Both the position numbers and the translations under genes were made by a program. From a virus (taxonomy: Duplodnaviria > Caudoviricetes): a stretch of 52,510 nt of DNA. The notes beneath the pieces were generated by a model. That model did not search any database and had not been told where the DNA came from. It was given only the letters and a program-made list of their open reading frames with translations. The DNA lies in the IMG/VR virus record IMGVR_UViG_3300032257_000018, positions 1-52,510 of that record, one strand, 5' to 3'. Position 1 is the stretch's first letter. Every line of letters begins with the position of its first letter. Shown here one piece after another: positions 26,449 to 40,490 of this stretch.

Positions 26449-26724
26449 TTGACGAATCCGATCACATCGCCCATATTTGAGGCCATGACCTGCGAATTAT
26501 CCAGTTTTACAACATCATCGTTCATGATTATCGCCAATATTCTGGCGATAGCAGTGGCCCTGACTGTCCATTCAATATCCAATGCCAGGGCAAAGGCGCT
26601 ATACGATCACCATCAGGATGGCGAAAAGAAGCTGCATAGCGCGATATGGATCACCATATCAGTCATATCATACGCAGTGGTCTTATATGGCGTCCTTGCC
26701 ATGCTCAGATATGCAGCCTGTTAG
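26449..26724 (+). CDS. Small two-TM membrane protein
   Basis: GGAGG SD before TTG; two TM segments; stop overlaps the convergent giant gene's stop. Confidence 0.6.
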   Translation: MTNPITSPIFEAMTCELSSFTTSSFMIIANILAIAVALTVHSISNARAKALYDHHQDGEKKLHSAIWITISVISYAVVLYGVLAMLRYAAC

Positions 26725-29700
26725 CGGCCGAGTACGCCGCGCGCTTTCTTTCCGACCTGCTTCATTTTTGATTCAATGTCGCTTTTACGGTCCAGGTAAG
26801 CTGAATTACTAATCAGATTCCTACGTCGATCTAATTCATTCTGACTGTATTCATATTTCAGTTCACGCATTGTTGCGTCGAGTCCCCTTAACTTTCTGGA
26901 TATCCCAACACTTACATCACTCGCTTTCAGCTTGATTCCTATCGATGATGTTATTGAATAACCTAAGTCATAAGGACGACCAAGCATGTCACGACCACCA
27001 TTGACAGACCGCGCTATTTTGTCCCAGTACCATGAGTTGTATATCCATGGCGCAGACGGCATCCATGATTTCCATGCCCAGCCCGCAACCTTATTCACTC
27101 GATCCACGCCGTCATCCGTATCCGGGTTAATGATCTCTTTCCCGGTAAATGCGGTTTTATTCAATGCGAACTCCATGCCCAGCATCAAAGGCCCGCCAAA
27201 CTGCAGCCATGCCGGGATAGGTATGGCAGACTGGCCCTGATTGGTATCAAAGACATCGCCAGCCGGTATCCATCGTCGTATATCCATGAAAACAGGATTA
27301 CCATAACTATCAAGCCATGGAGCCCTGATCATTCGAGGTGTACCCAGCCAGGTGTTACCCTGCTCAGAATCATGTAGCGATCTACGCTCTTTATCTTCAT
27401 CATCGCCGCTGGGAGCCAACAGATAACCCATCGCATTGATCATGTAAGCAATGGTTGTATATTTTGCCAGCTTCCAAGGTCTTTCAGCAACAGCCTTTGC
27501 GATCACCGGGATAGCCCGATATGTGTATGCAATAAAGGGCAGGACTGATGATCTTGCCACATTCACAAATGGCGCTCGGATGTCATAATTCAAGAATTGA
27601 TCCCGCGCAATCTGGGCAGCGACATCCTTATGATCACCCATTCCAAGACGGCGCATATAGGTTGCCATGCGAAATACTTCATCTTCAAGCTGGTATGTTG
27701 ATATCATTTTATTATCTGCTTTTTTTACCAGCTTCCATAAACCGTCAACAAGCTTACCGGACTGTCCAATTTTGCGCTCGAAATAACCGTCACCATCATT
27801 ATTCTGCTCAAGTATTTCATCAAGAATAGGATTCAGTACTTCTCGTTTAATCTCATGTAAAACAAATCCTGATCCGAATGCACCATGCTCAAGCGCATCC
27901 TGATAATCTTGTGTTTTATGCCTCAAGGCATATATTCCGCGCTTCAGGTCACGCCACCTAACATCCGCCATGTCCATAAAGATCATATTCGACATGACAT
28001 TATTCATGTGTACAACAGGGTTTCGAGCGGTCTTATTAAGCTTCCATTGCGTTAATATTTTATTCCATGACTTTGGCTTTTGCATTTGAAACAGCTCATT
28101 AATATCACGCCATATTTCAGCCCGAACATATTTGCCTGATAATGCTCCCCAGCGTTTTTTATTGGTACCAGGGATATTTCCACTTGGCACCTGTATCCAT
28201 TCATATTGAGTATAAACGCTCCATCGATGACCAGTGGGCTCACCTATAACCCCTTCAGGCTCCCCCTCTCCGCTAAACGTCCAGGCTGGGTTAAGACTTA
28301 TATCTTTCAGGAACCGGCCATTAGCAAGATCTGACGACATCATATGGAATGTTTTAGCAATCGTATAACGGGCATCAAGGATCTCACCCATATTTATGCG
28401 TTCTTCCTTGGTAAAGTCGCGCCACAGAGTATATTTACCGCCGCGAGACTCCCTGACAGTCCACTTGCCTTTATTTTCCCATGCCTCATATTTTGCAGGT
28501 ACAGGCTTATTGGCGGGCCAGTATATTCGCTCAAGTATTTTTGGCTTTCTGATAGCAGGGTCAATGCCATCAAGATCAGCAACACCCTGGCCGACATTCG
28601 ACATACGATCAAATACAATAAATTCTTGATCAATCAGGCTGGCATCATTGCCGTTTTTCTTTTGACCGAACCAATCAGGTATTAATTTTGTTAAATCACC
28701 CTCGGATACCTTCAGATTCATGCCGCGCTGTTTAAATGTATCACCAGCAATTCTCTTTCTGCGCTTGCTCATGGCCTTACTTGCCCAACCTCCAAGCGTA
28801 TCCTGATCTGCCTCATGCTTTTTATACACACGATGCAAATAAGTAAGGCGGTTTTGCTGAAAGGTAGCCTCATCAAGCAGGCCCAGGGAAACCGCTTCAC
28901 GGCCCAGATCATCAATGGCGTTACGGATCGGCTCCGCGATAGCCTGCATTTCAGCATCACCTACTATTTCGCCATTCAATACAGCCTGAAGGACCTTAGC
29001 TTCTTTAAAATCCACGCCCCTATCAAGCAGATCCATGATGATATCCACGCCCTTGGTAGCTATACGGCGCTCTTGCGCATCACGCTCCTGATCGAGTCGC
29101 TTAAATTCTTCATCAAGGCCATACCGGTCAATCATGCCCGCGCGTACATTTTCAATAAATCCATTCATCCATGACATATGGCCATCATCTTTAAACTTGG
29201 CTTTAGTGATGGCATGAATAGCCTTGTCGTGAACCAATGTTGTTACCTGGTCAACTCGCGCCAGTTTAAAAGCAGATCTAAACATCCTATCAACGTACTG
29301 GCCACTATTTACATCATCAGCAAGAGCCCCTTGGATATTGTCATCATCACGCCGGGACAGGTAAACACTTGGATCATCAGAAAAGTCGCCATTATTGGCA
29401 GTGGATTTAATTTGATTGGAGTCAAAAACAACATAAGAGCCGTCTTCAGCAATGATAATGCCATCATGCCCCTGCTTGATTAACTCATCAGCAGCACTTT
29501 TCGCCTCATCACTTGTTTTTAATGACAGGAAGTTTTCCATAGTCATGTAATGCGGGTTCTCCATTTTCATAAAGAAACCACGCACTACATCACCATACCC
29601 GCCCGCTCGACGGGCATCAGGTGAAAAGAAGTGACCCAGGCTTGCACCGGGAACTTTCACCTTAGTAGAATCATGATCACGATCAAACACATCAAACGCA

Positions 29701-32700
29701 TCATTTGAACCATGAAACAGTATTAACGGATTACTATCAGAATCAATTATTTTGGAATCGCCGAACCAAGACTTAAAGGCTGGCGTTTTAGTTACGCTTT
29801 TTTCAGATCTCGAAGTCGATCCTGTTCTGCCCAGATCTTGTACAATTCCTTTTGAAATTGCGCGCCGACCCGCCCGGATGGATTGCTTATCATCCGTTGA
29901 AGTTCTTCCTGGCTCGGTTGCGGAGTCGAAAGAACCTTGTCTACCACTGGGTTTCCTGTTGTCTTCATGCCCTTGATTATAGCCGCTTTTACCATCTTTT
30001 CCACGTGATAATGCAACAATTGGGCTATTTACAAACTGATTATGTATAACAGGGCCATTCTTCACGTGATTAGAAACACCCTCCATCATGATCTTAATCT
30101 CTGATTCTGAAAGCTTTATTGATGGCCATACCTTTCGCATCCACTCCCGTACCATGGCAATAAGCTTATTATATATCGTCGGTTTTTCGCCTGTTTCAGC
30201 GATTCTCGCAAGCATTTCTTCTGCCGCTATTAACCGCTGCTTTGGTTTATTCAGATCAAGCTTGTATTTTTTAGCGAGATCCGCCAGTCCTTTTCGACCA
30301 TATGACATCACCACCAGATTCAGAAGCTTATCCAGATTTTTACCAAACACCTTACGCAAACCATAATGACCAAGTACTTCATGCATGACTATTACGGGAA
30401 CATCACTATCTTTTCGAATATTGTCAGCAATGAGCCATACAGCCCCAGTCTCAACATCATACAATCCTTCAGCTTCATTCGTTGACTTATCGGCATGCAA
30501 GTAATTAAGTATGTGATCCGGAAGTTGATCAACAGACTGCACAGTAATTATCTGCGGTCTTTCAACCCAATCACTGGTTATATCACTGGCAATGTCAACA
30601 ACCTGGGCAGAAGAAAGCCCGCTATTTGCGGGCTTGTTTGAGCGTGATAACAATGGATCTTTAGGAGGCGGGCTCTCTGATTCTAACTCACTCTCTATTT
30701 CAGCAAGTCTTTCTGACTTCGATTTCAAGTCATCTTCATACTGGAACTCACCAATAGATTCATTTTTCAATACACCCAGTTTCTTTTCTGCTATTTGTAT
30801 TTCTTCAGAAAACTCTAAATGAACATCACTCAGTCCCCTTGCTGCATTTTCTAGCCTACGGACCGTACCCAGGGCAGCGGGAGAAGAATCATTTTTCGAT
30901 AAGATTGACCCATTGAATAGCCATTTCCCGTCAATATTGGATACATGGTCATTTTCATACAGACCTACTTCCCATCCAGCAAGGTGTCTACTGAACGTAA
31001 TTGGATAGCCTGATATTTTACCAATCACTTGCTCATCAACTTTATCAGCATTCAATTTATCAGCAATCGCCAGGATCTTGATGCCAGCCTTCTTTCTGTC
31101 CGTGTAACTGTTTTGACCAAGCGTAATTGCGAATTTGTCGCCGCTGGTACTCTGGTATATTTTGGACAACTCAATCAATTCATCAAGCTGTTTCTTCATT
31201 CGCGGTATGCGCTTTTCATAATTCTCTATCTTTAATCTGCCTGAATGCCCCTGATTGATATGCGCAAACTTCAATGATTCGAGTTTTTTAACTTCTGATA
31301 TCAGTCCAGCCTGCTCAAGTAACAATGGATTACCAGAGGATAACGCTTTAGCCATCGCCATTTGATTGGCGCTATCACTTACGTCTTCAACACTATCTAT
31401 AGACAGGTCGCCGCTCATGACCTGATCTATCATTTTCTGCTTAGTTTCGTTTAACTGCCACATGAATGAATCAATAGTACCCTCAGTAGCATAAGCATAT
31501 AAACCAACCTCATCATTCTTATTGCCCTGGCGTATAGCCCTGCCTTCACGCTGAACGATATTGGCTGGCAGATAGTCAATATCAAGGTGATGAAGATCAT
31601 ATAGGCGCTGTTGCACGTTAACACCGGTACCCATATTCTTAGATCCACCAATCAGGATGCGCCTAACCCCGGTATTCATATCCCTGAACAGCTTTTTCTT
31701 CTTGTTAGAATTAGTGGCGTCTTGAATAAAGGCAATTTCATTCTTCGGGACCCCACGATTAACCAGTTCACTTCGGATATGCTCATATATATCGAATCCA
31801 TGAGACTGCCTGATCTCAGTAAATATAAGCTGCGTAGCCCCCTTCTTAATCTCAGGCTTATTGCCTTTATAATAAACCTTGTCAGAATTATCCTTCCATG
31901 ACTGATAAACAGCGTCAATCATAGCGTCAAGCTTACTCTTACCGCTTTGTGATCTACCTACCAGCCGCAAATCAATGGATGCTTTTTTAGCATCATTAAT
32001 AACCACCAGAATATTATCCTCACCCTTTTTAGCAGGTCCCTTCTTTTCTTCAAGCTTAGTGATTCTATTCTTCAGTGAATCTTGAAACTCAAGCATTTCA
32101 GGTGATCGTTTGACTGATACTATCTGTCTCGCGCCGCCTTTCACGGCAGGCCGCTTGATAGTAATAGACTCCTTGAGGTCATTATCTGACACGATATCAG
32201 CGATAGATAAGAAATCACGCAGCAATGCAGGAACACCAACAAACTTAGCTAATCTGGTTGATGGTTTAAATGACCCACTAGCCTGCATTTCAAGCTCTGT
32301 GACGGTATCCGCAAAAGTGGCTGACCATGAATCAAACGATGATGTATCGTTATCACGTAGGACTTCTGGCTGTAGGTACCGCTGAATATTAAACACTTCG
32401 CCAAGAGTATTCGTGACAGGTGTGCCGCTCATTAGTACCATATTCCGCCCAGGATTAACTGAATTCAAATAGCGTGATTTCAGGTACAGGTCCAGAGCAA
32501 TACCTGATCCAGTTGAATCAACTCCCTTTGTGTTTGATTGCTCTGTCGGGAATGGAATCTTCTTATGTGTGTGCGCTTCATCTACAAACAGAAAATCAAT
32601 ACCGGTTTCCTCAAACGTAATCCCGGCGTCTTTCTTCTCCTGTGATGTCATGGCATTCAGCCTGCTTTCCATGGCTTCTATTTGACGCTCAATTGTTTTG

Positions 32701-35700
32701 CGTGATGCCCGGTCACTTTCATCCACTTCTTCCAGAAGCTTGCGATACTCAGTCAGCATGGCCTCGATCTCATTGGTAATGAATTCATCGGACATAGCTA
32801 TTTTTTCAAATGATTGATGCGTCATAATAACTGCATCCCAATCCTCACTTGCCATCCTTGATAGGAATCGCCTGCGATTCTTCTTGTCCAGTTGCTTTTC
32901 ATCAGCAACAAGGATCTTCGCGTCAGGGTATGCATCCAGTAATTCAGTAGCAAACTGCTTCAGCGTGGATTTTAGCACCACATAAGTAGGCTTTTTCGCC
33001 AGCCCCAGTCGGCGTAACTCCATGCCTGCGATATTTGATGCCAGGGTTTTGCCTGATCCAACCGTATGCGCCATATAGGTATTTCCGCGCTGCAATATCC
33101 TCCACACTACATTTGTCTGCCATGAATGAGGCTTATAGCGGCTTGATAATCTAGGTAATGTCAGGTGTTTTCCATTGAATTTCCTTGGAACAGTCGTATT
33201 AAATACAGCGTTATATTTATTATGAAGTGCATCGGCTGACTGGGTATCGCTCAATGCCCAGCGACTAAACTGCTCTTTCAATTCTTGAGCCTTTTGGTTT
33301 GCTGCGGCTGTTTCTGTCTTGTTTAACTCACGAACAACCTGACCCCCTGACTTGAAAGTATCGTACACCTTGATCGTGCGCTTATTCAACGCAGCCTCTA
33401 GTATCTTGCTTGCAGTCATCCTGGCTGTAGCATACTTCTCGCCCTTAGATTCTCCGGTAACACTCCACGATGATGTGTCGCCTTTAATAAAGCTATCAAC
33501 ACGACCATCGAATGATAAGACTTCTTCGGCAAATTTTTGAACGATTTCTTTATCAATCCAGTGTGCGCCAAGATTGACAGGCACCCTTGACAGTGGAAGG
33601 TCTTCAGGCTGAACAGCTTCAAGTGCCTTAATATTTCCATCAAATCCAGCTTCGCCATTTTTTGCCGCTGCCTTCGCTGACTCAAGCTTTTGCTTCACGT
33701 TTCCACTAAGGTAATCATCCTCAGTCAGATATCGGCCTGTATCTGGATCTTGGAATATGACTGCATCCAGTTCCTCAATAGCCTCACTGGGAGACACACC
33801 ATACTTTTCAGCCAAGTAGTCAATATCGACATACCCGCGATCATTGAGCGTAACATTCAGAGCATCAGTCACACTTTCTATCTCAGCTTCCTTGCGTTTT
33901 GTCATGACATTTTCAGTAAAGATAGATCCCTTTTCTGCGGTATTAGTAGCTTCGTCGTAATGTTCAATACCCGCTACACGATAAGCTTCAGGATCAAGGT
34001 CTATAGTGCTGATAATAGGCTCGGTAACAATCTCAATACCATCCTTACGGACGATAGTTTTAACTTGATTGATTGGCCCATGCTTGCTAGTGAAAGTGTC
34101 ATATGCCTTATCTAGTACTTTTTGCGCTGCCTTCCAGTCACCATCAATAAACTGCTCAAGATAAACCTTCATGACCGCATCACGAAGCGGGATATAATCA
34201 CGAAGAATCTGCGCTTGCTTCTTGCTCATCCCTGTACGCTGGCCATTGCCACGCACTTTCACGCGAACACCTACACCATCTTCAACATTCCTTAATTCGT
34301 TATTTCCGTCAATAAAATAACTAGATTCCTTTTGTTTAGGATCAAGACTGAATTCTGTCTTCTTAGCTTCAAACTCAGCATCTTGAAGGTGATCGTTATA
34401 TACATTGCTAGGTAATGAGCCAATTGCTTCTTTAAGTTGCTCATTCAAATTACCAGAAGGCAATACAGTGTATTCATCCGATCCATACATTGATCCCTCA
34501 AGCGCCTGCGTACCTAGTACCATATTAGGATTAGCAACAAAATAACTATTTATATTTGCTTTACCACCATCAACATCAATCTGATGGGTATCTGTCCAGG
34601 CACTACCATTCGACTCAACATTCTCGCCAAGTTTTTGGAAGAATAGAATATCAGTGACAACTTCAGTTCCGGCATTTTCTTTAAATGCGGTCTGCGGCAA
34701 TCTAATGGCACCCAGTAGCCTTGCTCGTTCAGCTAAATAGGCGCGCGCTGCATTATCCGCTTTATCCATGGTGCCTTTACTGGTTACGAATACAGCAATA
34801 CCACCAGGCTTTACTGAATCAATCTGCTTGGCGATAAAGTAATCATGCAGTTTGAAATTATTACTTTTATAGCGAGGATCAGATTTGACAGAGAAACCAG
34901 CAAATGGAGGGTTCCCGATAGATAGGTCGAAGTGGTTTTGCGGTAACCCTATTTTAGTAAAGTCACCAGAGATAACACCTGACTGCGGGTATAATAATTT
35001 TGCAATAGCCGCACTGATACTATCCATTTCAATGCCGGTATAATGAATATTCATAGAGTTAGGTATTAACCCAATAAAATTACCCGTACCAGATCCGCCC
35101 TCGATGGCGAGTCCCCTTTTGAATCCAAAATTACCAATAGCGGTATAGATAGAATCGATAATCGGCTTTGATGTGTAATGGGCATATTGAGTGCTACGCG
35201 CAGCCGTTTTCAATTCTTCTTCTGTCAGAATTTCACGTAATTCATCATGTAATTCCTTCCAGGTTCCGGTAGGCTCTTTCTTTGAAGGGAATAATTTATT
35301 GGCAAGTTCAGACGCTCCCCATCCCGTATAACTAGCAAGTATCTTCTGCTCTGATTTTGTCGCGCTACGGTTTTCTTTTTGAAGTGTCTTTATGATGCGA
35401 ATAGCCTCAATATTAGCCTTCGCTTTTTGAAGGGCAGATCCAGCCCCTAAATTATCATTATCCGTTATGCGGTAATTTGTCCGTACAGGTAATTCAGTTC
35501 TGTCATTATCTGCGCCATTTCTATCTCCTGTGCGCTCATTGCCGCCATGTTCATTGTTGCCGCTACGTCCTGTGGGTCGTTTTTGTCCGCCTGGCTTCTT
35601 GCTGCCCTTGCTGCCGCCGTTCTTGCTTCCGTTACTTGTTCCTGATACTGGATTATTATCTGATCCAGCTCCCCGCTCTGGCTCATTTGCTTGAACTTGG

Positions 35701-38700
35701 TCGGATTCAGGTCCTTGATCGTTTCTTTGATTGTCGTCAGGTAGCTCATTGGTATTTTCCTCTGATCTCAGTATAGCAGGATCGGCAAATAAATCGCCGG
35801 TTTCCAGTGTATCTGGCTCTGGTTTAGTCTTTTTGGTAGGTTTTTTGCTGTCAATGTCACTTGCTGATGTCATTGCTGAGTTATCAAGCCCAGGATAATA
35901 CCTTGCTCCCTCATAGAATGAACGGATATAAGGCTTTATTGCATCCCCCATATCATTAATCATTTTCTTGGAATAATCAGAAAAGGACCGCGCACCAGCT
36001 TCGATATGATATACGGCAAGCTCAGTACCAAGCGCAATTAACTCAGGATCAAGGCCAGAATTAATGTTGTTCAGCTTGGCTTTTAATTTGGCCCGGATCT
36101 CATCAGCCCGGTCACTGGATACAAGTTTGTTGCCTGATCCATAATTAGAGCCTTTCTTTTCTTCTGGCTTATTAGCTTGATTGTCAGCTTTCTCGCTAAT
36201 AGCCTCCTTTAATGCCTTGTTTGCGCCATCATCATCAAGATCTTGATAATAGTAATCCTCGACAATGTTATCTATTTCTTTTTCTGTAAAACCATATTGA
36301 TCCACGGCTTTAGTGATTAATGCTGAATCAAGCCTGTCATATTTATATGAGACAGCCATCGCAAGATTATCAATAGCGTTATTAGCCTGGAAAAATGAAT
36401 AAGCAAATCCTTCAGGTGTTGCAGACCGGGCATTCTTTGTAGCAAGACTCTTGCCGCCGTATTTTGTATGCATCTTAGAGCCTTCCGTGGCTTCAGTAGG
36501 CGCGATAGGAAGATCAGCATTAAACCTACCCCAGATAAGCGTCTTTTTAGTGTAGTCTTCTCCAACATGATTCGGATCAAATGACAGTCGCCAAGGTGGT
36601 AATCCGCCTAGTCGCTCAATTCGGCCTACTGGGTTTTCCAGAGCCCATATTGGTGGCTTAAAGTATTCAATTATATTTAATGTTTGATGCACAAGATTAA
36701 CAGATGCCGCAGTTCTACCATCTTTATCTTTTGCTGCAAAATGCCGCGCTCCACTTGAGGCAAAATCAGTACATGGGCAGGCAGCTAATACCGCATAAAC
36801 GTCAGCACCTTCAAACATGCCGAACATATCTGCATATAAATCAAATCCATGGTTATTAATGTCGCCAATATTAACCTCTTGATCGGCTTCTACTGTTTCG
36901 TTATATACGTCAGCCAACCAGTTATCCTGGATGTCAAAACGATATACCTGATAGCCAGCTTGTTCCCAGGGTAGTGACCACTTTCCCGTTAAGTCAAACA
37001 ATGAAAGAACTACTTTATTTTGGTTTGCGCTTCCCTTCCCCTGCTTAACAGCGTTTTCCTCCCATTCATCAATTTTTTTCTTCGCTTCTTCTATAGTCAT
37101 CCATCCATGGTCTTTATGGTAAACCTTAACTTTATCATTTAATCGAACAATATCATTCTTGGCCGGATCATCGAAAACATGAGTAAATTCTTCATCGCTT
37201 GATTCTTGAGCGTCATTGAATTCTTTTACAATTTCATTAAGCTCACGATTATCAACACCGACATCTTGATGCTCAGGCGCTTTGCTTTCAGTCTTACCCT
37301 GGGCCTTTTTCTTTAGTGCGTCTTGCTTGCTAGTAGGATTAGTGGAATCGCGTACTTCATCAATTGTTTTCCTGAATTTCTCTTTATCCCCCTTGAATAT
37401 TAATTCAACAATGTCAATCTCGCTTTTATTTTCAAGCGTAACACCTACAGGGTATCCATCGGAGTCGTTAGTAATTTTTTCAATATCAAAAAGGCCAATT
37501 TTTTCGCCTTTCTTCCAACTTACTAATCTTTCAGCAACATACCCTGGACCAAGATTTTCAACTAATTTAGTTTTCTTTTTAGGTTTGTCTTTCTTGCTTG
37601 GCTTGGATTCATTGTTTGCAATAACGGTTGCGTTATCGTCTTCAATGATATCGCCTTCTTTATCTATCCATGTGTTTTTTTGTTTTTCTCCGTCTTCGAC
37701 GTATTCTTTAACAGCTGTACCGTCAGGCAATTCGTGTGTCGGCGTGAATTCTTTTTTCTTCGGAGTAGGTGAAGTAGTTTTTTGAGCATCATCAATATCT
37801 ACCTGTTTCGATTTTCCGCTGAATAAATCACCATCACCAGATTCAACGGGCTGATTCTCAGATCCGTTTCGCTGAATGTCCTTGCTGATAGTTTTATCAT
37901 GGATGGCCTGGGCATTGGCATCGGCTGTTCCAAATATGTCATTTTGCTGGGCAGCATCATCCGTAACGCTACTTGATGGAGGAGTTTGCTGATCTAATTG
38001 GAAGGTTCCTGCTTCTGGCGTACCTTTGGCCGGGTTCCGTTCTTCTTGTGTTCCCGTAATCGCTGAACCATTTCCTTCCGTTCCTTCATGCTTTTGCTGT
38101 TCTTGTCCATTGTCTTTACCTTCTCGAATCAATTGGCCGAGCATTTGAGCGGCCTGATAATCGGATATATTCCTTCCTGCTATGGCTTCAGCCGCGTCAG
38201 AGTCATACTGGCTTGCCTCATCGAGTAATTCATAAAATGCCATCGTTTCGGCTGACCAATCTGGATTATACTCGGTTTGATCAAAGTGTGAACCAGCATT
38301 ATCATAACGCTCATCCTGAAAAATGCTACCAGGTTCCTCACGGTCAATCGCAAATCGTATAAATGAACGGGCTTTATCGCGCCTTTTTACTGCGTCATCG
38401 ATGTTTGCAGGTGATTCACGTTCAGCCTGAATGTTATCCATGGCCGCTTTTACGATATTCGCCTGATTTTTACCAAGCGGCTTACCTTCAAGCGCGCGAG
38501 TCAATGCCGTGGCTACCTGTGCATGACTTGCCTTTCCGTCGATCTCACGAACAGAAGACAATGCCTGAAGCTTATCCTGATCAACATTTACAGAGAATAC
38601 GGAGTCACCACCCAAGGCAACACCCAGCTTATCAACTGCTTCATTGGCCGTGTAATTTGTATCTATATAGCCATCCTGAGACAATAACTCAGCAATAGCA

Positions 38701-40490
38701 TCAAAACTGTTTCCACCCTGGGCCGGGAATAATGGACGGCCAAACACCTTATTTTTGTCTTTGAAGTTCTCAGGGTCAAAACCTTGAGCAAGAGCCTCAT
38801 CACGATTAATACCGCCGATCTTGGCAATTGCCGTCAAAATATCGTCGGTAGTGGAATCGACCTGCGTTGATTTTTTATCCGACGCTGCACCAATAATGGA
38901 TAGAGTACCCTGTATTCCATCCCTGTATTCGACTCGCTTAATACGTGGATCATTAAGGCCCTTGGGTACAATAATGCCTGCGGTTTTATTCTGGACATCA
39001 TTTACCCGGTTATCAAGGTCAATTCGTCTGGCCGCATCCCGCTCGGTTTCAATTGTGGCATCCAGAGAAGGAAGCTCAGGCTCGTTATTGTCTTGCGCGA
39101 AGTCAATGCCGCCCGGATAATTGATGGCAGGCTCCGTGGCCCCCGTAGACGCTGACAATGGATCTGCATCGGCTTGTGGCTCAGGTACAGTAAAATCAAT
39201 CCCGCCGTCATACTGAAAGTCATCAGCCAATGGATCAATGATATCGGGATTAGCGTCAGCTTGTGGCTCAGGCACAACAAAATTGACACCACCTTCATAC
39301 TGAACATTATCAGGATTAGCATCAGCGACTACATCACCAGCAACACCACCAATAACATCACCTGCATCAAGTGGGTCACTGCTTGAATCTGGCGTAGGTT
39401 TTTCGGGTTTATCAGGTTTCGCAATGTTCCCAGGATTGGGGTCACCCGCAACCGCAGAAAGCGCACCACCTGCGCCGAAACCACCAATAAATGATTGAAG
39501 CGCACCCTCACTGACACTTTTAGCGGGATCGTAGTATGACTTTATTGAAAGATTGGTATTACTATTCTGTAATAACTCGGTAGAGCCCTCACCCAAGCCG
39601 CCTTTGAGGAACCTTGAAAATAGATTCCCGCTAGATCCAAGAATTTTATCAAGACCGACTTTTTCAAGGTAAGAGTTTACCGTCGCTACCTGCGCCATGG
39701 CCTTTGTAAATGCAATCGGGTCAACCTTTTGACCAGTTCGCTTTTCAAAGTCAGTGGCATCGGTTGAGACTTCCATGGACTCAAGCCATGCCATAAAGGG
39801 TAAGGAGCCGCCAGACTTATAAGCGGCAACTAATGAAGGAACAGCCTGAGACAAAAATCCAATTACCGCCTTTGGGTCACTTATAATCTTTCCGGCTTTA
39901 CTGAAATCACCATCCAATAGTGCATCAAACGCCTTATCAGCATCCTGCGATGCTTTCGATAGGTCCTTGAATGGCTTGAATTCTTGCGGCAATACATCCT
40001 GGCTATGTCCAATTGCATCCGCAACATCCGAGGTACCAGCAACATGATAATCACCAATATCAACACCGGTTGTAATAACGTCCATTATTCCTTTACCCTG
40101 GATCTTTGCGGGTATAATCGGTTGCGTCATCCAGTCGGGCAGTCCCATTCTTTTACCGAATTGGTTTATCGCTTCCGTGACTCGTGCAAATGCGCTTGGT
40201 GTTTCCCATATACCACGGGAAATAGCCAATGTTCCCTGAGCAGCACCGGCACCAGCAACACCCGCTATGTCTCCAAGAGAAGTGCTATCGTCCTGATTGG
40301 TATTTGGAAGATTGCTTGCAGAATCAGGGATAGACGTACCAAAACCACCCTGCCTGATAGGTGTGTCAGGCTTTACAGGATCATCGAGCGGATCAATTGC
40401 GCCTTCCATATTCACATCATCAAGCGGATTAATTATGTTAGACGTAGAAACGCCATACGAATCATCGAGCGGATCAATTATTTTAGCCAT
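26721..40490 (-). CDS. Giant polyvalent virion/ejection protein (DarB-like): C5-MTase-like + N6-MTase + SF2 helicase + zincin-like peptidase + ART-like + large C-terminal domain
   Basis: LSLFD.TG / ACPCTDF / ENP (~36380-37015); GSGTGNF / NPPF (~34400-35460); HTVGSGKT / DEAH / SGTP / QREGR (~31300-33130); HEVLGHYG..EE (~30050-30640); FHGS / FFS / GYG (~29360-29790); last gene of the ejection operon. Confidence 0.92.
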   Translation of the reverse strand: MAKIIDPLDDSYGVSTSNIINPLDDVNMEGAIDPLDDPVKPDTPIRQGGFGTSIPDSASNLPNTNQDDSTSLGDIAGVAGAGAAQGTLAISRGIWETPSAFARVTEAINQFGKRMGLPDWMTQPIIPAKIQGKGIMDVITTGVDIGDYHVAGTSDVADAIGHSQDVLPQEFKPFKDLSKASQDADKAFDALLDGDFSKAGKIISDPKAVIGFLSQAVPSLVAAYKSGGSLPFMAWLESMEVSTDATDFEKRTGQKVDPIAFTKAMAQVATVNSYLEKVGLDKILGSSGNLFSRFLKGGLGEGSTELLQNSNTNLSIKSYYDPAKSVSEGALQSFIGGFGAGGALSAVAGDPNPGNIAKPDKPEKPTPDSSSDPLDAGDVIGGVAGDVVADANPDNVQYEGGVNFVVPEPQADANPDIIDPLADDFQYDGGIDFTVPEPQADADPLSASTGATEPAINYPGGIDFAQDNNEPELPSLDATIETERDAARRIDLDNRVNDVQNKTAGIIVPKGLNDPRIKRVEYRDGIQGTLSIIGAASDKKSTQVDSTTDDILTAIAKIGGINRDEALAQGFDPENFKDKNKVFGRPLFPAQGGNSFDAIAELLSQDGYIDTNYTANEAVDKLGVALGGDSVFSVNVDQDKLQALSSVREIDGKASHAQVATALTRALEGKPLGKNQANIVKAAMDNIQAERESPANIDDAVKRRDKARSFIRFAIDREEPGSIFQDERYDNAGSHFDQTEYNPDWSAETMAFYELLDEASQYDSDAAEAIAGRNISDYQAAQMLGQLIREGKDNGQEQQKHEGTEGNGSAITGTQEERNPAKGTPEAGTFQLDQQTPPSSSVTDDAAQQNDIFGTADANAQAIHDKTISKDIQRNGSENQPVESGDGDLFSGKSKQVDIDDAQKTTSPTPKKKEFTPTHELPDGTAVKEYVEDGEKQKNTWIDKEGDIIEDDNATVIANNESKPSKKDKPKKKTKLVENLGPGYVAERLVSWKKGEKIGLFDIEKITNDSDGYPVGVTLENKSEIDIVELIFKGDKEKFRKTIDEVRDSTNPTSKQDALKKKAQGKTESKAPEHQDVGVDNRELNEIVKEFNDAQESSDEEFTHVFDDPAKNDIVRLNDKVKVYHKDHGWMTIEEAKKKIDEWEENAVKQGKGSANQNKVVLSLFDLTGKWSLPWEQAGYQVYRFDIQDNWLADVYNETVEADQEVNIGDINNHGFDLYADMFGMFEGADVYAVLAACPCTDFASSGARHFAAKDKDGRTAASVNLVHQTLNIIEYFKPPIWALENPVGRIERLGGLPPWRLSFDPNHVGEDYTKKTLIWGRFNADLPIAPTEATEGSKMHTKYGGKSLATKNARSATPEGFAYSFFQANNAIDNLAMAVSYKYDRLDSALITKAVDQYGFTEKEIDNIVEDYYYQDLDDDGANKALKEAISEKADNQANKPEEKKGSNYGSGNKLVSSDRADEIRAKLKAKLNNINSGLDPELIALGTELAVYHIEAGARSFSDYSKKMINDMGDAIKPYIRSFYEGARYYPGLDNSAMTSASDIDSKKPTKKTKPEPDTLETGDLFADPAILRSEENTNELPDDNQRNDQGPESDQVQANEPERGAGSDNNPVSGTSNGSKNGGSKGSKKPGGQKRPTGRSGNNEHGGNERTGDRNGADNDRTELPVRTNYRITDNDNLGAGSALQKAKANIEAIRIIKTLQKENRSATKSEQKILASYTGWGASELANKLFPSKKEPTGTWKELHDELREILTEEELKTAARSTQYAHYTSKPIIDSIYTAIGNFGFKRGLAIEGGSGTGNFIGLIPNSMNIHYTGIEMDSISAAIAKLLYPQSGVISGDFTKIGLPQNHFDLSIGNPPFAGFSVKSDPRYKSNNFKLHDYFIAKQIDSVKPGGIAVFVTSKGTMDKADNAARAYLAERARLLGAIRLPQTAFKENAGTEVVTDILFFQKLGENVESNGSAWTDTHQIDVDGGKANINSYFVANPNMVLGTQALEGSMYGSDEYTVLPSGNLNEQLKEAIGSLPSNVYNDHLQDAEFEAKKTEFSLDPKQKESSYFIDGNNELRNVEDGVGVRVKVRGNGQRTGMSKKQAQILRDYIPLRDAVMKVYLEQFIDGDWKAAQKVLDKAYDTFTSKHGPINQVKTIVRKDGIEIVTEPIISTIDLDPEAYRVAGIEHYDEATNTAEKGSIFTENVMTKRKEAEIESVTDALNVTLNDRGYVDIDYLAEKYGVSPSEAIEELDAVIFQDPDTGRYLTEDDYLSGNVKQKLESAKAAAKNGEAGFDGNIKALEAVQPEDLPLSRVPVNLGAHWIDKEIVQKFAEEVLSFDGRVDSFIKGDTSSWSVTGESKGEKYATARMTASKILEAALNKRTIKVYDTFKSGGQVVRELNKTETAAANQKAQELKEQFSRWALSDTQSADALHNKYNAVFNTTVPRKFNGKHLTLPRLSSRYKPHSWQTNVVWRILQRGNTYMAHTVGSGKTLASNIAGMELRRLGLAKKPTYVVLKSTLKQFATELLDAYPDAKILVADEKQLDKKNRRRFLSRMASEDWDAVIMTHQSFEKIAMSDEFITNEIEAMLTEYRKLLEEVDESDRASRKTIERQIEAMESRLNAMTSQEKKDAGITFEETGIDFLFVDEAHTHKKIPFPTEQSNTKGVDSTGSGIALDLYLKSRYLNSVNPGRNMVLMSGTPVTNTLGEVFNIQRYLQPEVLRDNDTSSFDSWSATFADTVTELEMQASGSFKPSTRLAKFVGVPALLRDFLSIADIVSDNDLKESITIKRPAVKGGARQIVSVKRSPEMLEFQDSLKNRITKLEEKKGPAKKGEDNILVVINDAKKASIDLRLVGRSQSGKSKLDAMIDAVYQSWKDNSDKVYYKGNKPEIKKGATQLIFTEIRQSHGFDIYEHIRSELVNRGVPKNEIAFIQDATNSNKKKKLFRDMNTGVRRILIGGSKNMGTGVNVQQRLYDLHHLDIDYLPANIVQREGRAIRQGNKNDEVGLYAYATEGTIDSFMWQLNETKQKMIDQVMSGDLSIDSVEDVSDSANQMAMAKALSSGNPLLLEQAGLISEVKKLESLKFAHINQGHSGRLKIENYEKRIPRMKKQLDELIELSKIYQSTSGDKFAITLGQNSYTDRKKAGIKILAIADKLNADKVDEQVIGKISGYPITFSRHLAGWEVGLYENDHVSNIDGKWLFNGSILSKNDSSPAALGTVRRLENAARGLSDVHLEFSEEIQIAEKKLGVLKNESIGEFQYEDDLKSKSERLAEIESELESESPPPKDPLLSRSNKPANSGLSSAQVVDIASDITSDWVERPQIITVQSVDQLPDHILNYLHADKSTNEAEGLYDVETGAVWLIADNIRKDSDVPVIVMHEVLGHYGLRKVFGKNLDKLLNLVVMSYGRKGLADLAKKYKLDLNKPKQRLIAAEEMLARIAETGEKPTIYNKLIAMVREWMRKVWPSIKLSESEIKIMMEGVSNHVKNGPVIHNQFVNSPIVALSRGKDGKSGYNQGHEDNRKPSGRQGSFDSATEPGRTSTDDKQSIRAGRRAISKGIVQDLGRTGSTSRSEKSVTKTPAFKSWFGDSKIIDSDSNPLILFHGSNDAFDVFDRDHDSTKVKVPGASLGHFFSPDARRAGGYGDVVRGFFMKMENPHYMTMENFLSLKTSDEAKSAADELIKQGHDGIIIAEDGSYVVFDSNQIKSTANNGDFSDDPSVYLSRRDDDNIQGALADDVNSGQYVDRMFRSAFKLARVDQVTTLVHDKAIHAITKAKFKDDGHMSWMNGFIENVRAGMIDRYGLDEEFKRLDQERDAQERRIATKGVDIIMDLLDRGVDFKEAKVLQAVLNGEIVGDAEMQAIAEPIRNAIDDLGREAVSLGLLDEATFQQNRLTYLHRVYKKHEADQDTLGGWASKAMSKRRKRIAGDTFKQRGMNLKVSEGDLTKLIPDWFGQKKNGNDASLIDQEFIVFDRMSNVGQGVADLDGIDPAIRKPKILERIYWPANKPVPAKYEAWENKGKWTVRESRGGKYTLWRDFTKEERINMGEILDARYTIAKTFHMMSSDLANGRFLKDISLNPAWTFSGEGEPEGVIGEPTGHRWSVYTQYEWIQVPSGNIPGTNKKRWGALSGKYVRAEIWRDINELFQMQKPKSWNKILTQWKLNKTARNPVVHMNNVMSNMIFMDMADVRWRDLKRGIYALRHKTQDYQDALEHGAFGSGFVLHEIKREVLNPILDEILEQNNDGDGYFERKIGQSGKLVDGLWKLVKKADNKMISTYQLEDEVFRMATYMRRLGMGDHKDVAAQIARDQFLNYDIRAPFVNVARSSVLPFIAYTYRAIPVIAKAVAERPWKLAKYTTIAYMINAMGYLLAPSGDDEDKERRSLHDSEQGNTWLGTPRMIRAPWLDSYGNPVFMDIRRWIPAGDVFDTNQGQSAIPIPAWLQFGGPLMLGMEFALNKTAFTGKEIINPDTDDGVDRVNKVAGWAWKSWMPSAPWIYNSWYWDKIARSVNGGRDMLGRPYDLGYSITSSIGIKLKASDVSVGISRKLRGLDATMRELKYEYSQNELDRRRNLISNSAYLDRKSDIESKMKQVGKKARGVLGR
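29792..29968 (-). CDS. Nested +1-frame gene (58 aa) inside the giant gene, probably leaderless
   Basis: TATAAT at 29976-29981, 7 nt before ATG; MKTTGNPVVDKVLSTPQPSQEELQRMISNPSGRVGAQFQKELYKIWAEQDRLRDLKKA; coincides with a linker of the host frame. Confidence 0.55.
   Translation of the reverse strand: MKTTGNPVVDKVLSTPQPSQEELQRMISNPSGRVGAQFQKELYKIWAEQDRLRDLKKA
35465..35749 (-). CDS. Nested +1-frame gene (94 aa) inside the giant gene, TnpV-like by eye
   Basis: Extended -10 TGCTATACT (35770-35778), GAGGA SD 8 nt before ATG; amphipathic helical product; coincides with a linker of the host frame. Confidence 0.7.
   Translation of the reverse strand: MSYLTTIKETIKDLNPTKFKQMSQSGELDQIIIQYQEQVTEARTAAARAARSQADKNDPQDVAATMNMAAMSAQEIEMAQIMTELNYLYGQITA
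37994..38110 (-). CDS. Possible nested +1-frame gene (38 aa, basic)
   Basis: GAAGGT SD-like 7 nt before ATG; MDKNSKSMKERKEMVQRLREHKKNGTRPKVRQKQEPSN; coincides with a linker; no clear promoter. Confidence 0.35.
   Translation of the reverse strand: MDKNSKSMKERKEMVQRLREHKKNGTRPKVRQKQEPSN

Follow-up and report, generated by a model that had tools for sequence, protein, structure and literature searches.

The stretch of DNA analyzed here (the window, 52,510 nucleotides) comes from a microbial-mat metagenome, from a phage with a GC content of 44%, and its minus strand carries a giant open reading frame (ORF) of 4589 codons, or 13.8 kb. The genes around this ORF encode the small and large terminase subunits, the portal, the major head protein, an internal virion protein and a tail fibre, and an integrase, a repressor and Bet/Exo are also encoded near it; the window phage is a temperate podophage of the Bcep22-like type. 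Three small ORFs lie inside the giant one, all of them in the +1 frame relative to it, and the frame of the giant ORF is referred to here as the host frame. The features of the region, in the order in which they are read, are the following.

26721-40490, minus strand: giant ORF, 4589 aa, DarB-like polyvalent virion protein (ORF list and translation, Pfam, synteny)
37994-38110, minus strand: ORF A, 38 aa, +1 frame, over host aa 794-832 (translation)
36633-37010, minus strand: C5 cytosine methylase-like segment, host aa 1161-1286 (PF00145, E 1.2e-6)
35770-35778, minus strand: extended -10-like motif TGcTATACT, 20 nt upstream of the ORF B ATG (motif only)
35758-35762, minus strand: Shine-Dalgarno-like GAGGA, 8 nt upstream of the ORF B ATG (sequence)
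35465-35749, minus strand: ORF B, 94 aa, +1 frame, over host aa 1581-1675, nested TnpV-like gene (homologues, fold, selection tests)
34713-34961, minus strand: N6-adenine methylase core, Eco57I type, host aa 1844-1926 (PF07669, E 3e-6)
31524-33119, minus strand: DEAD/SNF2/Helicase_C region, host aa 2458-2989 (PF00270, PF00176 and PF00271, all below curated cut-offs)
29976-30003, minus strand: promoter-like TGGAAA-16-TATAAT, 10 of 12 matches, with the -10 hexamer inside ORF C (promoter scan)
29792-29995, minus strand: ORF C, 67 aa, +1 frame, over host aa 3499-3566 (translation)
29391-29744, minus strand: ART-PolyVal domain, host aa 3583-3700 (PF18760, E 3.2e-14)

The giant protein combines several unrelated enzymatic domains, as DarB-like and other polyvalent proteins do, and these include an N6-methylase and a superfamily-2 helicase, the latter recognized below the cut-off; in Pfam the matches to PF07669, PF00145 and PF18760 are above their cut-offs and those to the helicase families below theirs. 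It is a giant multidomain protein of the same kind as the polyvalent proteins described by Iyer et al. 2017 (PMC5512222). With the DarB-like giants of Lessievirus, Gervaisevirus and Cimandefvirus, such as Bcep22 gp75 and JC1 gp69, it shares its size, its multidomain organization, its place at the end of the virion module, the N6-methylase and SNF2-type helicase, the synteny and a nested +1 ORF. It differs from these cultured relatives in carrying the ART-PolyVal and the C5-methylase-like domains, and a Pfam search for SLT or LPD38 gave no match in it at E<=0.01. A 195-aa ORF, a 504-aa ORF and the giant ORF follow one another as gp67, gp68 and gp69 do in JC1, and JC1 gp69 has been detected in virions by mass spectrometry with 51 unique peptides (Table 6 of PMC9144972). 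By analogy with JC1 gp69, and given its position in the structural operon, the giant protein of the window would be packaged and injected.

At the DNA level the locus stands far from known phages: megablast of the giant gene against phages gave no match, and with blastn against cultured phages the identity was confined to 232 nt at about 70%. Among sequencing runs, the stretch turned up in a single one, the DNA run that is its probable source, and in no RNA run; no variants of it were found in the contigs of the probable source run. A second contig of the same run (50,398 nt) has a 54-nt match, with 8 mismatches, to the methylase core (window 34638-34691), and the sample may include a related phage.

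A previous reading of this DNA, made from the sequence alone, had proposed that three low-complexity linkers of the giant protein each coincide with an ATG-initiated ORF of the +1 frame, and the giant ORF and ORFs A, B and C are all located as it claimed. For C it gave a start at host aa 3507, which is the second in-frame ATG; the first one places the start at aa 3499. Both of the -10-like strings that it named are present, GCTATACTG at 35769-35777 and GGCTATAAT at 29976-29984, and it was also right that B ends where the N6-methylase module starts and that C ends just before the ART-like domain, 17 residues ahead of the ART-PolyVal match.

The +1 frame of the giant gene contains 26 ATG ORFs of at least 35 aa, 20 of which have at least 40 aa. 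When the codons of the host protein were permuted synonymously (1000 permutations), the observed length was reached in 73% of the cases for A, 68% for B and 46% for C; the lengths of A, B and C alone are not beyond chance. A stop codon in the +1 frame needs a T at the second position of a host codon, and few such stops occur in the linkers because T is rare there, in 3/40 (A), 6/96 (B) and 7/69 (C) linker codons, i.e. 6-10%, vs 24.5% gene-wide. A +1 ATG, in turn, arises where a D, N, H or Y codon ending in T is followed by a codon starting with G. Hydrophilic segments coincide with long +1 ORFs in the relatives too, and over the whole gene there are 204 stops in the +1 frame vs 623 in the +2 frame. 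The permutation null is weak, since a fixed host protein fixes two thirds of the +1 nucleotides; ORF B passes as chance by this test and yet is real by homology (see below), so that length nulls of this kind have little power. By codon usage, A, B and C are the top three of the 26 +1 ORFs, with z values of 2.77, 3.73 and 3.09, respectively.

Two other features of the +1 frame were observed. The longest +1 ORF, which the previous reading had not mentioned, has 106 aa (host aa 390-496, window 39002-39322, minus strand) and falls where the protein is internally repeated; its length exceeds that of the synonymous-permutation null (p 0.016), and its +1 codon usage is ordinary (z 0.13). In addition, the 204 +1 stops of the whole gene are fewer than the 240.1 +/- 7.8 of the synonymous permutations, which looks like a codon-pair effect that is not bound to one ORF.

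The protein encoded by ORF B belongs to a family. A phmmer search with the 94-aa peptide against 1.84 billion representative proteins gave 22 matches at E<=1e-3, with a best E of 4.7e-28; ten reached E<=1e-10. Two matches (P0015 and P0023) were dropped as repeat proteins, which left 20 homologues. Most of these have 91-104 aa, within a range of 91-230 aa, and they align end to end, starting at residue 1, with 30-61% identity; P0008, whose C-terminal half diverges, was excluded from the alignment designated A2. Most of the homologues lie on contigs of 565-2768 bp; their being called as separate proteins is no proof of a free-standing gene. TnpV (PF14198) is the commonest Pfam match in the family, weak and present in 6 of the 20 members (best E 2.7e-4), and it is found on 19% of the members of an Atlas neighbour cluster. 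For the B peptide of the window itself, Pfam gave no TnpV match at E<=10, and nothing significant was found for it in Pfam and PHROG; with no match at the curated cut-off B is not assigned to TnpV, and a distant kinship is possible. When modelled with AlphaFold2 and the 20-row alignment, B is predicted to form a four-helix structure (pLDDT 93.2, pTM 0.80). A fold search with this model returned no match at E<=1e-3 in PDB or BFVD, and the best VIA Z for the fold, 6.9, is within helical noise.

More direct searches recovered little. A word-based protein search with B or C returned nothing, and the same search missed the B homologues found by phmmer; tblastn of the B and C of the window gave no match against phages, and tblastn of B and of its L001 homologue gave none against plasmids. 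A profile search with the B family alignment recovered no locus in viral contigs and a single one, L013, in genome contigs.

The B family HMM matches a +1 ORF at the same place in the locus L001, of 67% GC (E 2.4e-6), and in L013 (E 3e-35). The L001 homologue was then used as a tblastn query against 50,697 phage records. It matched 38, all of them Burkholderia (Lessievirus) or Ralstonia (Gervaisevirus, Cimandefvirus) phages, and in 38/38 the match lies inside an annotated DarB-like CDS with no other annotation there. For 12 of these the locus was fetched, and in every one the match is an intact +1-frame ORF of 105-112 aa, complete from start to stop within the host gene, just as B is within 26721-40490. 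These nested ORFs share a conserved MT[AEP][TK]Q start and end at the start of the next conserved module. The host frame is open across the nested gene in all 12 phage loci; a single host-frame stop, in RPZH6, lies upstream of the nested gene, where the annotation splits the CDS. The +1 ORF persists across genomes from 40-44% GC up to 67% GC. These comparisons argue that B is a genuine, conserved and unannotated nested gene.

Several loci show variations around the nested gene. In L013 (7900-8683 of a contig from a metagenome-assembled genome, MAG) the small gene is intact, with 117 aa; of the host frame that overlaps it, only 250 aa are left, ending just past the NYRITD motif. The locus lacks the methylase module, and a gene for a terminase small subunit is nearby. 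In four Gervaisevirus loci (L020, L022, L024 and L025) the sequences diverge about 15 residues past the stop of the nested gene, which is kept. A 110-aa +1 ORF with a codon-usage z of 4.69 occupies the corresponding position in L007 (12537-12869), directly before the methylase module, with GAGG preceding an internal ATG; hhalign detected no similarity between this ORF and the B family (probability 0.3%).

The pattern of substitutions indicates which frame is under constraint. In the nested region the pairwise differences at +1 positions 1, 2 and 3 are 0.052, 0.074 and 0.115 among the Burkholderia phages, 0.053, 0.036 and 0.073 among the Ralstonia phages, and 0.41, 0.39 and 0.58 between the window and L013; in the flanks it is host position 3 that is most variable. 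Since the differences peak at +1 position 3, the wobble position in the nested region belongs to the +1 frame. For six full-length Burkholderia phage giants, the variable columns at host positions 1, 2 and 3 number 28, 15 and 18 in the nested region vs 713, 521 and 1678 elsewhere (chi-square p 3e-5). Over the nested DNA the Nei-Gojobori pN/pS is 0.42 and 0.36 for the +1 frame and 0.96 and 1.35 for the host frame; the evidence of purifying selection on B comes from the relatives and from the window-L013 pair. When the B protein was held fixed and its codons were resampled, the host frame remained open in about 1/3000 samples (0.0003). An open host frame over B is therefore almost never expected by chance, which indicates that its openness is selected. 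Taken as a whole, the data point to a truly dual-coding stretch, in which a constrained small protein and a neutrally evolving, uninterrupted host linker share the same DNA. The proposal that the linkers look like off-frame readings of real genes thus holds for B, which has homologues, its own Shine-Dalgarno (SD) sequence and selection in the +1 frame, and is not supported as a general rule.

Translation signals accompany the nested gene. The SD of B has a duplex energy of -6.0 kcal/mol, vs a median of -6.2 for the 22 ATG genes of the window, and a GAGG or AGGAGG lies 6-10 nt upstream of the nested ATG in 15/15 loci of the family. The SD-like motif of A is gene-like in energy (-6.1 kcal/mol) and that of C is weak (-3.3). 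With respect to transcription, the TATACT upstream of B is preceded by TGn, the extended -10 form, and has no -35 match, which is why the promoter scan omitted it. In L001 and six Burkholderia phages the arrangement TTGC(A/G)(A/T)-16-TACAAT is found, and the -10-like hexamer lies 20-23 nt before the ATG there and in the window; no such hexamer precedes the nested ATG in the Ralstonia phages or in L013. An internal promoter for B is possible on these grounds. The TATAAT of C lies inside the ORF, 7 nt ahead of the second ATG, and therefore cannot work together with an SD site. Overall, promoter-like sites show no enrichment (25 found vs 31.0 +/- 6.0 in shuffles).

The case of A and C is different from that of B. 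Neither has homologues in Pfam, in PHROGs or by tblastn against the 33 loci, and for C none was found by word search, by tblastn against phages or in the Atlas (recognition 1781, below 2300). No relatives were detected for the host segments around A and C, and no close relative was found for the segment that runs from the peptidase through the linker with C to the ART domain. The +1 codon usage of both is above expectation with the host protein fixed (z 2.77 and 3.09), and besides B only A and C show a +1 codon score near or above that of frame 0. The nested genes confirmed by homology (B of the window and those of L001, Bcep22 and JC1) have z values of 3.7-5.9; a z of 2.67 is reached by a non-conserved linker ORF (JC1 836-898), and windows of the +2 frame go up to 3.7. 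With noise of this size in the +2 frame, A and C are not callable from a single-sequence codon-usage scan. AlphaFold2 gave C a pLDDT of 69.7 from the single sequence. Most likely, A and C are a side effect of the composition of hydrophilic linkers, and each of them is rather unlikely to be a real gene. A 60-aa +1 ORF in a hydrophilic linker of L001 (host aa 983-1043) has a z of 4.57, as high as that of confirmed nested genes.

The reading that we favor, with a probability of about 0.72, is that the locus encodes one continuous DarB-like virion protein, that B is a nested dual-coding gene, and that A and C are by-products. The giant gene would encode, besides the C5-methylase-like segment, the N6-methylase, the SNF2-type helicase and ART-PolyVal, a metallopeptidase-like motif. 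The DNA just upstream of the N6-methylase module would be read in the +1 frame as the complete gene B and in the host frame as an open linker rich in G, N, R, D and E. The small gene may be the older of the two frames, and the giant ORF probably arose by a read-through fusion of the flanking genes across it. We infer that ribosomes start on B internally, on the late mRNA, and a weak internal promoter may contribute as well. Rather than serving the methylase alone, the product of B probably assists the giant protein as a whole, as an accessory factor in folding, packaging or control.

A broader view would take the polyvalent giants as mosaics with engulfed small genes, in which the TnpV-like protein is a dedicated chaperone, packaging adaptor or control factor and A and C are further lineage-specific nested genes; as a whole we regard it as improbable. 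If it were true, the linkers of giant polyvalent proteins would be a systematic hiding place for unannotated genes.

A little more doubtful still is the model of the sequence-only reading, in which three separately expressed genes with internal promoters each supply the neighbouring module with its cognate inhibitor, antitoxin or chaperone. The reality of B and its end at the methylase module agree with it, as do the codon-usage ranks of A, B and C (the top three of 26 +1 ORFs), the SD energy of A (-6.1 kcal/mol) and the 10-of-12 promoter-like site of C; against it, A and C are without detectable homologues, the z values of 2.7-3.1 are also found in a non-conserved linker ORF and exceeded in +2 windows, and the -10 of C falls within the ORF while promoter-like sites show no enrichment. 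The sliding scan of six aligned Burkholderia phage giants also speaks against a partner gene in every linker: a single region, and so a single nested gene, has shifted codon periodicity. Long linker ORFs of L009 and L010 (167, 194, 153 and 123 aa) have the normal host periodicity. A marginal window of that scan (Bcep22 aa 771-810) was rejected, having +1 stops in 6/6 phages. The idea of a cognate partner for the neighbouring domain is weakened by Ralstonia phage GP4 (L032), whose 3224-aa giant carries SLT, LPD3 and LPD38 and in which no methylase or helicase domain was found at E<=1e-3. GP4 keeps the nested ORF intact, together with its SD, and hence the small protein is not simply the partner of the methylase.

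Two further explanations concern B itself. One is that B has no initiation of its own and that ribosomes enter it by a +1 frameshift out of the giant frame, the product then being a truncated N-terminal part (about 1580 aa) that ends in a TnpV-like domain. Phage structural genes commonly give frameshift products, and here neither frame is interrupted and the +1 frame closes right before the next module; this explanation is nevertheless very improbable, given that the conserved ATG matches residue 1 of the homologues in the alignment, that a strong SD stands 6-10 nt upstream in every one of the 15 loci, and that a +1 stop precedes the ATG at a short distance in both the window and the phages. 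The other, the least probable of all, is that no +1 ORF is functional and that the similarity of B mirrors the conservation of the host frame: the synonymous-permutation null does reproduce the lengths and a T-poor position 2 explains the missing stops, but the host frame over B has a pN/pS of about 1 and the +1 frame one of about 0.4, codon periodicity has moved to that of the +1 frame, the fold prediction of B is highly confident and the ORF survives the change from 40-44% to 67% GC.

With B taken as a nested dual-coding gene, the closest known arrangement is that of the Rz/Rz1 spanin genes of lambda-like and Bcep22-like phages, where a larger gene likewise contains the whole of a small one, which is on the same strand, in the +1 frame, and has its own start; an embedded Rz1 has been described in JC1 and CSP3, members of the same phage group (PMC9144972, PMC10269572). 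Unlike in Rz/Rz1, the host here is a 13.8-kb polyvalent virion gene in which the host-frame reading is an unconstrained linker, and, unlike the Rz1 lipoprotein, B is a predicted soluble four-helix TnpV-like protein. TnpV (PF14198) is a small transposon-encoded protein of unknown function that resembles B in size and in being helical, whereas the context of B is a phage virion gene and not a transposon. Ulx of P1 is likewise a small gene adjoining a DarB methylase-helicase gene, annotated 'Ulx-like anti-restriction'; unlike B, it lies downstream of darB and is not overlapped. A relationship of the B family to P1 Ulx was rejected (hhalign probability 0.2%).

Two observations on other loci may be added. 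Between the near-identical giants of L003 and L008, the linker at host aa 951-1020 shows differences of 0.125-0.175 at position 1, 0.075-0.15 at position 2 and hardly any at position 3, which could be diversifying change or an indel-shifted alignment. At the 67% GC locus L001 (8591-17674), the opposite strand has an open frame of 3027 codons antisense to the giant ORF, which is probably compositional.

In the literature searched and in the annotations we found no report of a nested gene in DarB-like genes: the words TnpV, overlapping, linker and frameshift do not occur in the text consulted of the polyvalent-protein paper (PMC5512222), and the parts consulted of the JC1 and CSP3 papers (PMC9144972, PMC10269572) use 'embedded' for Rz/Rz1 only. 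A conserved protein-coding gene has been missed by the annotation in 38/38 records of cultured Bcep22-like phages, where only the DarB-like CDS is given. Gene callers forbid long same-strand overlaps, and this is why the B-type gene is unannotated. As this case illustrates, a genuine gene read out of frame can show up as a low-complexity linker of a giant phage protein. B is also a concrete candidate for an accessory factor of the giant antirestriction proteins, which are little understood.
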